Shown here one piece after another: positions 1 through 7,236 of a stretch of 7,236 bases of DNA. This DNA is from a virus. Its lineage: Duplodnaviria > Heunggongvirae > Uroviricota > Caudoviricetes. Position 1 is the first letter of the stretch; each line of letters begins with the position of its first letter. The stretch lies in IMG/VR virus record IMGVR_UViG_2706794665_000008; one strand, written 5' to 3'. The notes beneath the pieces are model-generated. The model saw nothing but the letters and a program-made list of their open reading frames with translations. It ran no database searches and was not told the origin of the DNA. Both the position numbers and the translations under genes were made by a program.

Positions 1-399
1 GCTCCTTCTGATGCCATTCTATTTCAGGAAGGAGTGTCCGTTAAACTCAGGCTACCTCAGTCTGCTGATTTGAGTCGCTACAGTGGCACGGTGGTTAACC
101 GTCCGACGTTTTTTGCTTTTGCAAAAGGCGCGGGTGTGATGGGGGAAGCGGGACCTGAAGCCATTCTGCCACTGCGTCGCGGTGCTGATGGTAAGCTGGG
201 GGGTGTGGCGGATACTGGTGGTTCAGGCATGGTGATGTTTGCCCCGCAGTACAACATTGAGATCAATAACGATGGCACGAACGGGCAGATAGGTCCGGCT
301 GCCCTGAAGGTGGTTTATGACCTCGGGAAAAAAGCGGCCGCGGACTTTATGCAACAGCAGGCCCGTGATGGTGGCCGGTTAAGTGGAGCATACCGGTAA
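1..399 (+). CDS. H: Tail tape measure protein gpH, C-terminal fragment (5' end lies upstream of the window)
   Basis: Frame 1 is open from base 1 to TAA at 397-399. The translation (...GGSGMVMFAPQYNIEINNDGTNGQIGPAALKVVYDLGKKAAADF...) matches my recollection of the lambda gpH C-terminus. Stop overlaps the next gene's start (TAATG), as in lambda H/M. No search run. Confidence 0.8.
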   Translation, partial: APSDAILFQEGVSVKLRLPQSADLSRYSGTVVNRPTFFAFAKGAGVMGEAGPEAILPLRRGADGKLGGVADTGGSGMVMFAPQYNIEINNDGTNGQIGPAALKVVYDLGKKAAADFMQQQARDGGRLSGAYR

Positions 400-2774: not shown

Positions 2775-5700
2775 ATGGGTAAAGGCAGCAGTAAGGGGCA
2801 TACCCCGCGCGAAGCGAAGGACAACCTGAAATCCACGCAGTTGCTGAGTGTGATTGATGCCATCAGCGAAGGGCCGGTTGACGGTCCGGTGGATGGATTA
2901 AAAAGCGTGCTGCTGAACGGTACGCCGGTCCTGGACAGCGAGGGGAAGACAAACTTTTCCGGTGTTACGGTGGTGTTCCGTGCAGGTGAGCAGGAGCAGA
3001 CACCGCCGGAGGGTTTTGAATCCTCCGGCTCCGAGACGGTGCTGGGTACGGAAGTGAAATATGACACGCCGATCACCCGGACCATCACGTCGGCAAACAT
3101 CGACCGTCTGCGCCTGACCTTCGGTGTGCAGGCACTGGTGGAAACCACCTCAAAGGGTGACCGGAATCCGTCGGAAGTCCGCCTGCTGGTTCAGATACAG
3201 CGTAACGGTGGCTGGGTGACGGAAAAAGACATCACCATTAAGGGCAAAACCACTTCGCAGTATCTGGCCTCGGTGGTGGTGGGTAACCTGCCGCCGCGCC
3301 CGTTTAATATCCGGATGCGCAGGATGACACCGGACAGCACCACAGACCAGCTGCAGAACAAAACGCTCTGGTCGTCGTACACCGAAATCATCGATGTGAA
3401 ACAGTGCTACCCGAACACGGCGCTGGTCGGCGTGCAGGTGGATTCAGAGCAGTTCGGTAACCAGCAGGTGAGTCGCAATTATCATCTTCGCGGGCGCATT
3501 CTGCAGGTGCCGTCGAACTATAACCCGCAGACGCGGCAATACAGCGGTATCTGGGACGGAACGCTTAAGCCAGCATACAGCAACAACATGGCCTGGTGTC
3601 TGTGGGACATGCTCACTCATCCGCGCTACGGCATGGGGAAACGTCTTGGTGCGGCAGATGTGGACAAATGGGCGCTGTATGTCATCGGCCAGTACTGCGA
3701 CCAGTCAGTGACGGACGGATTTGGCGGCACGGAGCCGCGCATCACCTGTAACTCTTACCTGACCACACAGCGTAAGGCGTGGGATGTTCTCAGTGATTTC
3801 TGCTCGGCGATGCGCTGTATGCCGGTATGGAACGGACAGATGCTGACGTTCGTGCAGGACCGACCGTCGGATAAGGTGTGGACCTATAACCGCAGTAATG
3901 TGGTGATGCCGGACGATGGCGCGCCGTTCCGCTACAGCTTCAGCGCCCTGAAGGACCGCCATAATGCCGTTGAGGTGAACTGGATTGACCCAGATAACGG
4001 CTGGGAGACGGCGACAGAGCTTGTGGAGGATACGCAGGCCATTGCCCGTTACGGTCGTAATGTCACGAAGATGGATGCCTTTGGCTGTACCAGCCGGGGG
4101 CAGGCACACCGAGCCGGGCTGTGGCTGATTAAAACGGAACTGCTGGAAACGCAGACCGTGGACTTCAGCGTGGGCGCAGAAGGGCTTCGCCATGTACCGG
4201 GTGATGTCATTGAAATCTGCGATGATGATTATGCCGGTATCAGCACCGGTGGTCGCGTACTGGCGGTGAACAGCCAGACCCGGACGCTGACGCTCGACCG
4301 TGAAATCACGCTGCCGTCCTCCGGTACCACGCTGATAAGCCTGGTTGACGGAAGTGGCAATCCGGTCAGCGTGGAGGTCCAGTCCGTCACCGACGGCGTG
4401 AAGGTGAAAGTGAGCCGGGTTCCTGACGGCGTTGCAGAATACAGCGTGTGGGGGCTGAAGCTGCCGACGCTGCGCCAGCGTCTGTTCCGCTGCGTGAGTA
4501 TCCGTGAGAACGACGACGGCACGTATGCCATCACCGCCGTGCAGCATGTGCCGGAAAAAGAGGCCATCGTGGATAACGGGGCACACTTTGACGGTGACCG
4601 GCGCGGCACGGTGAATGGTGTCACGCCGCCAGCGGTGCAGCATCTGACCGCCGAAGTCACCGCAGACAGCGGGGAATATCAGGTGCTGGCGCGATGGGAC
4701 ACGCCGAAGGTGGTGAAGGGTGTGAGCTTCCTGCTTCGCCTGACCGTGGCAGCGGACGACGGCAGTGAGCGGCTGGTCAGCACAGCCAGGACGACGGAAA
4801 CCACATACCGCTTCAGGCAGCTGGCGCTGGGGAATTACAGTCTGACAGTCCGGGCGGTAAATGCCCGGGGGCAGCAGGGCGATCAGATATTCATGAACGA
4901 CGTGTTCCTGAAATGCCTGACGGCTCCGACCATTACCAGCGGCGGTAATCCNNNNNNNNNNNNNNNNNNNNNNNNNNNNNNNNNNNNNNNNNNNNNNNNN
5001 NNNNNNNNNNNNNNNNNNNNNNNNNNNNNNNNNNNNNNNNNNNNNNNNNNNNNNNNNNNNNNNNNNNNNNNNNNNNNNNNNNNNNNNNNNNNNNNNNNNN
5101 NNNNNNNNNNNNNNNNNNNNNNNNNNNNNNNNNNNNNNNNNNNNNNNNNNNNNNNNNNNNNNNNNNNNNNNNNNNNNNNNNNNNNNNNNNNNNNNNNNNN
5201 NNNNNNNNNNNNNNNNNNNNNNNGATTATTATTTTTACGTTCGCAGTGTGAACACCGTTGGCAAATCGGCATTTGTGGAGGCCATCGGTCGGGCGAGCGA
5301 TGATGCAGAAGGTTATCTGAATTTTTATAAAGGGTTGATCAATAAAACGCATCTCGGCAAGGAGTTGTGGACGCAGATTGATAACGGTCAGCTTGCGCCG
5401 GACCTGACTGAAATCAGGACGTCCATTACGAATGTCAGCAATGAAATCACGCAAACCGTCAATAAAAAACTGGAAAATCAGAGTGCTGCAATCCAGCAGA
5501 TACAGAAAGTTCAGGTTGATACAAATAATAACCTGAACAGCATGTGGGCTGTGAAGCTGCAACAGATGAAGGACGGACGCCTTTATATTGCGGGTATCGG
5601 TGCCGGTATTGAGAATACGCCAGCAGGAATGCAGAGTCAGGTGCTGCTGGCGGCAGACAGGATTGCGATGATTAATCCTGCGAATGGCAACACAAAGCCG

Positions 5701-6354
5701 ATGTTTGTTGGTCAGGGCGATCAGATATTCATGAACGACGTGTTCCTGAAATGCCTGACGGCTCCGACCATTACCAGCGGCGGTAATCCTCCGGCATTTT
5801 CCCTGACACCTGGCGGACGGCTGACGGCGAAAAATGCCGATATCAGCGGTAACGTGAACGCGAACTCCGGGACGCTCAACAACGTCACGATTAATAAGAA
5901 CTGTCGGGTTCTGGGAAAATTGTCCGCGAACCAGATTGAAGGCGATCTCGTTAAAACAGTGGGCAAACCTTTCCCACGGGACTCCCGGGCACCGGAGAGG
6001 TGGCCATCAGGGACCATTACCGTCAGGGTTTATGACGATCAGCCGTTTGATCGGCAAATTGTTATTCCCGCGGTGGCGTTTCGCGGTGCTAAACATGAGC
6101 GGAAGAATAACAATATTTATTCGTCATGCCGCCTGATAGTGAAGAAAAACGGTGCTGAAATTTATAACCGAACGACCCTGGATAATACGCTGATATATAC
6201 GGGTGTTATTGATATGCCTGCCGGTCACGGTCACATGACGCTGGAGTTTTCTGTATCGGCATGGCTGGTAAATGGCTGGTATCCCACAGCAAGTATCAGC
6301 GATTTGCTGGTTGTGGTGATGAAGAAAGCCACTGCAGGCATCACGATTAGCTGA
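2775..6354 (+). CDS. J: Host specificity / central tail fibre protein J (interrupted by N run 4952-5223; N- and C-terminal parts are in different frames)
   Basis: N-terminal part (2775-4951, frame 3) starts [54 protein letters not shown]..., matching lambda gpJ. C-terminal part (5224-6354, frame 1) starts [32 protein letters not shown]... and contains the conserved [29 protein letters not shown] block before the TGA at 6352-6354. The span is 3580 nt, not a multiple of 3. Confidence 0.85.
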
Positions 6355-6421: not shown

Positions 6422-6760
6422 ATGCGTAAAGTTTGTGCAGCCATTTTGTCCGCAGCCATCTGTCTGGCCGTATCCGGTGCGCCTGCATGGGCGTCTGAAC
6501 ATCAGTCCACGCTGAGCGCCGGGTATCTTCAGACCCATACTGATATGCCAGGCAGCGATGACCTGAAGGGCATTAACGTGAAATACCGTTATGAGTTTAC
6601 GGACACGCTGGGGCTGATTACGTCATTCAGTTNGGCGTGGGGGGCTGGCGTGCAGTTTAACCCGACCGAATCCGTGGCCATTGACCTTGCTTATGAAGGT
6701 TCCGGCAGTGGTGACTGGCGCACTGACGGTTTCATCGTGGGTGTCGGTTATAAGTTCTGA
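6422..6760 (+). CDS. lom: Lom-like outer-membrane protein (Ail/Lom/PagC family), internally deleted; likely non-functional
   Basis: 112-aa ORF with a signal peptide (MRKVCAAILSAAICLAVSGAPAWA|SE), a Lom-like N-terminal block (LKGINVKYRYEFTD) and the Lom C-terminus (AIDLAYEGSGSGDWRTDGFIVGVGYKF, terminal Phe). Lambda Lom is roughly 200 aa as I recall, so the central part is missing. A single 'n' at 6633 sits at the junction. Confidence 0.7.
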   Translation: MRKVCAAILSAAICLAVSGAPAWASEHQSTLSAGYLQTHTDMPGSDDLKGINVKYRYEFTDTLGLITSFSXAWGAGVQFNPTESVAIDLAYEGSGSGDWRTDGFIVGVGYKF

Positions 6761-6787
6761 TTAGCCAGGTAACACAGTGTTATGACT

Positions 6788-6812
6788 GCCCGCTGGTTCA
6801 GGCGGGCTTTTT
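6788..6812 (+). terminator. Rho-independent terminator downstream of lom
   Basis: Stem gcccgc (6788-6793) / gcgggc (6802-6807) with an 8-nt loop, followed by TTTTT (6808-6812). Confidence 0.55.
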
Positions 6813-6823
6813 GTGGGGTGAAT

Positions 6824-7150
6824 ATGGCAGTAAAGATTTCAGGTGTACTGAAAGATGGGGCGGGTAAACCTGTCGTAAATTGTGCGATTGAACTGCGGGC
6901 CAGAAGAACCAGTCCGACCGTTGTGGCACACGTTGTTGCCACTTGCGTGACGGACAATAACGGTGCTTATGTGATTGAGGCTGAGCCGGGGTATTACGAG
7001 GTTGCGCTTCACTGTAACGGCTGGCAGCCAACCCGTGTCGGGGATATTGATGTGGCACCGACTGATGCACCGGGGACACTGAACGCGTTTCTGAATGCAC
7101 CAAAGGATGGTGATTTACGTCCGGAGGTGATGAAGTGTCAGCGCCAGTGA
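6824..7150 (+). CDS. stf: Side tail fibre protein Stf, N-terminal fragment (108 codons, then stop)
   Basis: From ATG 6824 the translation MAVKISGVLKDGAGKPVVNCAIELRARR... matches the N-terminus of lambda Stf (MAVKISGVLKDGTGKPV.NC...) as I recall it. The ORF-track start at 6782 would include the lom terminator hairpin, so I reject it. TGA at 7148-7150, and the other two forward frames also hit stops within about 10 codons. Confidence 0.6.
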   Translation: MAVKISGVLKDGAGKPVVNCAIELRARRTSPTVVAHVVATCVTDNNGAYVIEAEPGYYEVALHCNGWQPTRVGDIDVAPTDAPGTLNAFLNAPKDGDLRPEVMKCQRQ

Positions 7151-7236
7151 TATAAGACGGTAATTCGCCATTTGGATTGTCCGCTCCACCCAACATGTTG
7201 TTTCCTTAAGGTTCTCACACCAGAAAGGACATCAAC

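Follow-up and report, generated by a model that had tools for sequence, protein, structure and literature searches.

A known counterpart of the gene studied here is stf of phage lambda, whose product carries the same N-terminal domain family (PF08400) and which occupies the same place after J and lom. The split of stf in lambda PaPa is a one-base frameshift within a continuous stf sequence, and the site after the tail-fibre genes is the usual cargo position in lambdoid prophages. The second system that concerns us, the insertion sequence IS21, reportedly measures 2130 bp, encodes IstA and IstB and produces 4-bp target duplications (Reimmann et al. 1989; Berger & Haas 2001), and the intact copies described below agree with this. 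IS-driven genome decay has been documented for Shigella (Hawkey et al. 2020, PMC7373316), and the same paper gives 12 IS types for S. sonnei 53G, with IS21 and IS600 on the list (PMC7373316).

We analysed a stretch of 7,236 nucleotides from a virus of the Caudoviricetes (IMG/VR record IMGVR_UViG_2706794665_000008; hereafter the window), in which stf is cut at codon 104 and is followed by what we identify as the left end of IS21. The locus differs from the split orf-401/orf-314 of lambda PaPa in that 3.5 kb of IS DNA interrupts stf, from which 433 bp have been lost, and it differs from lambda also in its surroundings, since the intact 470-aa counterpart of this gene is followed by a DUF4376 gene and by no lambda-type tfa.

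The stf fragment and its breakpoint

The open reading frames of the window follow the lambda order (a remnant of H, then M, L, K, I, J, lom and stf), and the position of stf after J and lom recurs in the annotated homologous prophage of Escherichia coli CFSAN029787 and in the Pfam calls on CP010829.1. ORF calling on the window places stf between ATG 6824 and TGA 7148-7150, i.e., 108 codons. In a Pfam search, this ORF matched the domain 'Prophage tail fibre N-terminal' (PF08400) with 126 bits (cut-off 26.6 bits) over profile positions 1-104 of 134, the intact 470-aa homologue covering positions 1-131; in a search of NCBIfam, no model matched Stf, whether truncated or intact. Over residues 1-104, identity to the lambda stf N-terminus (NC_001416 19650-19961, E=4e-23) is 51.9%, which bears out the resemblance noted in an earlier interpretation of the same DNA made from its letters alone (the sequence-only reading). 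The same reading pointed out that lambda Stf goes on for several hundred residues more, a comparison that holds at the level of the family only, the true full-length counterpart being the protein of 470 aa. The shaft and the C-terminal receptor-binding part of a full-length fibre are missing from the window, because stf is cut at codon 104.

The start of the gene deserves a comment, as some gene callers, and many annotations, begin it at ATG 6782 and obtain a product of 122 aa. A terminator-like hairpin followed by a T run lies between lom and stf on the same strand (6788-6815, the hairpin itself, GCCCGC-loop-GCGGGC, spanning 6788-6807), and phage mEp460 has a terminator annotated at the equivalent position. 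Because this hairpin falls inside the 122-aa reading, ATG 6824 is to be favoured over ATG 6782, which suggests that the shorter, 108-aa form represents the real start of stf. A promoter scan of 6700-7236 returned no promoter-like site, including any hybrid promoter across the junction of stf and IS21, of the sort that IS21 tandems form at their own junction.

The breakpoint itself can be placed to the base. When 6700-7236 was compared by megablast with complete E. coli genomes, matches of up to 99.5% identity were obtained, and all of them ended at query positions 436-439, corresponding to 7135-7138 of the window. The matched gene encodes a 470-aa 'prophage tail fiber N-terminal domain-containing protein' and follows an Ail/Lom gene. 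The intact homologue in E. coli CFSAN029787 shows 99.5% DNA identity up to 7135 and complete divergence beyond: the alignment is identical through GAG GTG ATG AAG (ending at 7135), after which the intact gene continues with CGCTTTGAGG and the window with TGTCAGCGCCAGTGATATAAG. The stf 5' fragment thus comprises codons 1-104 (6824-7135, 312 bp, + strand). The claim that stf ends after 108 codons at an abrupt junction was correct, the ORF running from 6824 to 7150, but unrelated sequence does not begin at 7151, as had been proposed. The alignment with intact stf and with IS21 copies sets the junction at 7135|7136, 15 nt further upstream, and therefore codons 105-108 (TGT CAG CGC CAG, or CQRQ) and the TGA stop (7136-7150) are foreign and IS-encoded. 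Past the junction, the forward frames close at TGA 7148, TAA 7153 and TAA 7161, so that all are shut by 7163, within the interval of about 7140-7170 noted earlier.

Within its first 28 nt, the left end of IS21 has stops in all three incoming frames, and host ORFs that read into IS21 are therefore terminated quickly.

The junction at 7135|7136 is not an assembly artefact: it recurs in complete chromosomes as well as in hundreds of assemblies made independently. Many public contigs, complete chromosomes included, have the exact 108-aa and 122-aa products among their gene calls, and 543 blocks of a public collection index the 122-aa form.

The IS21 end and the limits of the draft contig

The sequence-only reading had advised a search of the terminal DNA (7100-7236) against IS and phage databases. 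Positions 7125-7236 have approximately 3,300 matches in E. coli genomes, of which 2,313 fall on plasmids (97-99% identity for the IS21 end), and about 2,900 in a set of plasmids whose hosts include Escherichia, Salmonella, Shigella and Yersinia. With thousands of matches, 7136-7236 must belong to a multi-copy mobile element. In two annotated copies (loci L001 and L002), istA comes right after the match (at L001 3611 and L002 3612) and is followed by istB, and RefSeq labels these copies 'IS21-like element IS21 family'. Their products fit this label: IstA (390 aa) reaches 285 bits against the IS21 family transposase model NF033546 (cut-off 160) and the helper ATPase IstB (265 aa) reaches 302 bits against NF038214 (cut-off 200). 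Both genes are thus present in near-identical intact copies; in the window, both fall past the last base. The intact copies measure 2130 bp, have imperfect terminal inverted repeats beginning TGTCA and are flanked by 4-bp target duplications (TGCG and AGAA).

The terminus in the window starts with TGTCAGCGCC at 7136, as expected for a terminal inverted repeat that begins 5'-TG and ends CA-3', and this left terminus, together with the leader up to the ribosome-binding site of istA, is 97-99% identical to the annotated copies. A default repeat search missed the imperfect repeats of the intact copies, but a local alignment of the left end with the reverse-complemented right end (TGTCAACGCCA) recovered them, over about 50 nt. 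The AAAGGA at 7224-7229 (+ strand) had been put forward as a possible ribosome-binding site at the very end of the window, which stands, although the gene that it serves is the transposase gene istA and not a cargo gene: in annotated copies, the istA start comes directly after the matched stretch. The start lies at nt 102 of IS21, equivalent to 7237, so that the window stops one base before the ATG, and a gene is called at the equivalent position of CP010829.1 (L004 10414). By every feature that can be tested at the level of sequence, 7136-7236 is identifiable as the left end of IS21, that is, its first 101 nt on the + strand, with the left inverted repeat (TGTCAG at its start) and the istA leader.

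Some other IS21 copies have a left flank like that in stf, with GAGGTGATG or GGTGAAG before TGTCAG (L002 3500-3510 and L001 3499-3509 vs 7125-7135 of the window). Because of this resemblance, BLAST matches run 9-11 nt past the IS21 end. With thousands of copies, such flanks could have arisen by chance, or they could reflect a weak preference for certain targets.

Outside its runs of N, the window is 100% identical to CP010829.1, the chromosome of Shigella sonnei FORC_011 (PMC5447701). Its opposite end, 1-59 (- strand), consists of the terminal 59 nt of IS600 (IS3 family), abutting the tape-measure remnant and matching exactly positions 1206-1264 of the element as oriented in L004 10741-12004. 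The full 1264-bp element that contains this match is 99.8% identical to the IS600 annotated in RefSeq E. coli genomes and carries a 3-bp target duplication where complete. Short-read assemblies usually break where repeated IS copies begin, and seven other draft contigs with the same stf/IS21 junction end 31 or 53 nt into IS21. The window is a short-read draft contig bounded by repeats, the IS600 end (1-59) and the IS21 end (7136-7236), and it ends 101 nt into IS21 because draft assemblies break inside repeated IS copies.

Other traits of the window betray its draft nature. The runs of N (2324-2564, 4952-5223 and 6633) are scaffold gaps of arbitrary length: the 241 N of the first stand for 250 bp of the reference, and at 6633 a single N replaces 262 bp of lom, which is why lom reads 112 aa and not 199 aa. 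Both J and I look split into artificial ORFs. Just before the second run, 77 nt (4875-4951) duplicate 5713-5789 of J, some 840 nt further on (L004 8629-8705 in the reference); this duplication is a gap-edge misjoin in the draft, and a 24-residue peptide is therefore repeated in two ORFs.

Structure beyond the window and competing readings

The sequence-only reading had recommended extension by several kb downstream, which other S. sonnei genomes made possible. We read the order of features in 11 long assemblies, one of them CP010829.1 (locus L004), and found five junctions that are identical in all of them. The stf 5' fragment (312 bp) comes first and is followed by nt 1-428 of IS21, after which a complete inverted IS600 (1264 bp, 99.8% identical to RefSeq-annotated IS600) lies within IS21, flanked by a 3-bp GTT duplication. 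IS21 then resumes up to nt 1098, where a second IS600, truncated at its 5' end by the absence of its first 87 nt, is joined to it at a TAC microhomology. After the truncated IS600, stf resumes at a position equivalent to L003 6870 of E. coli CFSAN029787, 433 bp further on. The stf 3' part is followed by the DUF4376 gene, by a sitABCD-like Mn/Fe ABC transporter operon (L004 15300-18749, immediately downstream of the tail-fibre/DUF4376 remnant; its ATPase reaches 592 bits against NF011630) and by genes for a universal stress protein and a porin. The complete genomes thus have a deletion of nt 1099-2130 of IS21 (the istA 3' end, istB and the right repeat) together with 433 bp of stf. The two stf fragments are separated by 3.5 kb composed solely of IS21 and IS600, and no non-IS open reading frame was found between L004 10313 and 13854. 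The IS21 copy in stf, limited to nt 1-1098 and split by IS600 at nt 428, is neither complete nor potentially active. We observed these junctions, their sequences and their constancy across genomes directly; given that the junctions are identical, we assume that the isolate from which the window derives would have the downstream structure of the other S. sonnei.

Among the options named for the sequence after stf (deletion, insertion or cargo), insertion therefore fits the junction, where the left end of IS21 begins, deletion is also seen, further downstream, where 433 bp have gone from stf and IS21 lacks its 3' half, and cargo has to be abandoned.

The prophage of E. coli CFSAN029787 is the closest intact version of this one. 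After its tail-fibre genes (L003 8291-10917), it has a frameshifted gene for an ipaH-type T3SS effector (ipaHe) and a gene for a SAM-dependent methyltransferase, a cargo that differs from the sit operon of S. sonnei at the same position.

Several other explanations of the short ORF were weighed against an IS21 insertion. That a sequencing frameshift or an assembly chimera conceals an intact stf is extremely improbable: a search of all frames after 7135 revealed no similarity to stf, the DNA there is that of IS21, and the same junction occurs in complete chromosomes and in hundreds of independent assemblies, although local assembly errors do occur in this draft, whose gaps are filled with arbitrary lengths of N and in one case bordered by a spurious duplication of 77 nt. 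The sequence-only reading had itself allowed for a continuation of stf in another frame, and also for the short form being the intact N-terminal gene of a known two-gene tail fibre; neither is borne out. The second idea gains some appeal from laboratory lambda PaPa, whose stf is split into orf-401/orf-314 (NC_001416 annotates orf-401), and from the 3' part of stf further downstream in S. sonnei. However, the ORF breaks off within the PF08400 domain (position 104 of the 134 in the profile) and owes its last four codons to the IS, the two parts are separated by 3.5 kb of IS DNA with 433 bp of stf absent, and the prophage has lost its head genes and most of its tail genes, all of which leaves a natural two-gene fibre with hardly any probability. 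Frameshift and two-gene fibre were both rejected on the base-level alignment and the Pfam coverage.

The tail-fibre region could also have received an island of defence or virulence cargo whose edge is the junction, as the sequence-only reading had suspected. Accessory genes do follow the tail-fibre genes, namely the sitABCD-like Mn/Fe transporter in S. sonnei and the ipaH pseudogene and methyltransferase gene in E. coli CFSAN029787, but they lie beyond the DUF4376 gene, which is the normal end of the tail-fibre module, and are independent of the junction. Dissection of the 3.5 kb between the stf fragments yielded IS21 and IS600 alone, on which ground a cargo gene at the junction was rejected; we regard the island as very unlikely. 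Similarly slight is the chance that the 108-residue fragment has been kept because it is expressed and useful, e.g., as a putative decoy of 104 fibre residues plus CQRQ that would occupy the fibre-attachment sites of superinfecting lambdoid phages and hinder the attachment of their tail fibres. The sequence is constant across many S. sonnei genomes and retains a start codon and most of the N-terminal domain, yet clonal descent alone predicts such constancy and the PF08400 domain is incomplete. Moreover, a terminator-like hairpin lies just upstream, 6700-7236 contains no promoter-like site, and IS-mediated deletions have cut off the late promoter region of the prophage from the tail genes. Were the decoy reading true, with the fragment expressed in S. 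sonnei from the prophage remnant, a small anti-phage factor would owe its origin to the insertion of an IS. With the IS21 insertion as the preferred explanation, we infer that stf is a dead pseudogene, cut inside its N-terminal domain by IS21, and that the fragment has no function.

A proposed history and its parallels in Shigella

The disruption of stf is one lesion among many in a defunct lambda-like prophage. Next to the IS600 end, and fused directly to it, the window retains only the last 112 codons of the tape-measure gene H (61-399, + strand), with 97.3% amino acid identity to the C-terminus of H of mEp460-like phages. In CP010829.1 there are only IS fragments between the antiterminator gene Q and this remnant, and the lysis, head and tail-shaft genes have therefore been lost.

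We are almost certain that IS21 transposed into stf of a lambdoid prophage in an ancestor of S. sonnei, and that IS600 insertions and a deletion followed. The simplest history comprises four events, which may have taken place in the following order, as reconstructed from the junctions. IS21 would have inserted after codon 104, between 7135 and 7136, in the ancestor of the S. sonnei strains that carry the junction; the stf frame would then read four codons into the left inverted repeat before meeting a stop, giving the 108-codon ORF. A full IS600 would have inserted into istA, leaving the 3-bp GTT duplication, and a second IS600 into stf, at a point 433 bp downstream from where IS21 had inserted. 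Finally, about 1.55 kb would have been lost in a deletion with TAC microhomology that ran from inside IS21 to inside the second IS600, taking nt 1099-2130 of IS21, 433 bp of stf and 87 nt from the start of the second IS600. The prophage was probably already devoid of its lysis, head and most tail genes when stf became a dead pseudogene, and the IS21 copy is itself dead.

The right end of this IS21 copy and its target duplication are absent from every genome examined, and because they are gone, we infer, rather than observe, that the history began with a simple transposition. The expected intermediate, in which IS21 is complete and its right end is followed by GAAG and the resumption of stf, was not found among the GTDB species representatives. 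The left junction of stf with IS21 was likewise absent from these representatives, among which S. sonnei evidently has no separate entry, and from complete E. coli RefSeq genomes.

The biological weight of the finding is small: it is one more case of IS expansion eroding the genomes and prophages of Shigella. It may have more practical uses. Where homology breaks off abruptly, no more than about 100 nt from a contig end, and the sequence that follows starts with TG and closes all frames, a short-read assembly shows the signature of an IS boundary, and such contig-end cases can be triaged with a single BLAST check for multi-copy matches. In addition, the fixed set of five junctions could serve as a marker of the S. 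sonnei lineage.

Compared with known systems, the locus holds few surprises. Unlike intact IS21, the copy in stf is interrupted by IS600 at nt 428 and ends at nt 1098, without istB, the right repeat or a detectable target duplication. The IS-driven pseudogenisation described for Shigella (Hawkey et al. 2020, PMC7373316) involves the same organism and the same IS types, IS21 and IS600, and it has the outcome seen here, a gene inactivated by an IS and then a deletion beside the IS, with no difference in kind. The truncation of stf is an already known kind of IS-mediated pseudogenisation, at a locus present in published and annotated S. sonnei chromosomes.
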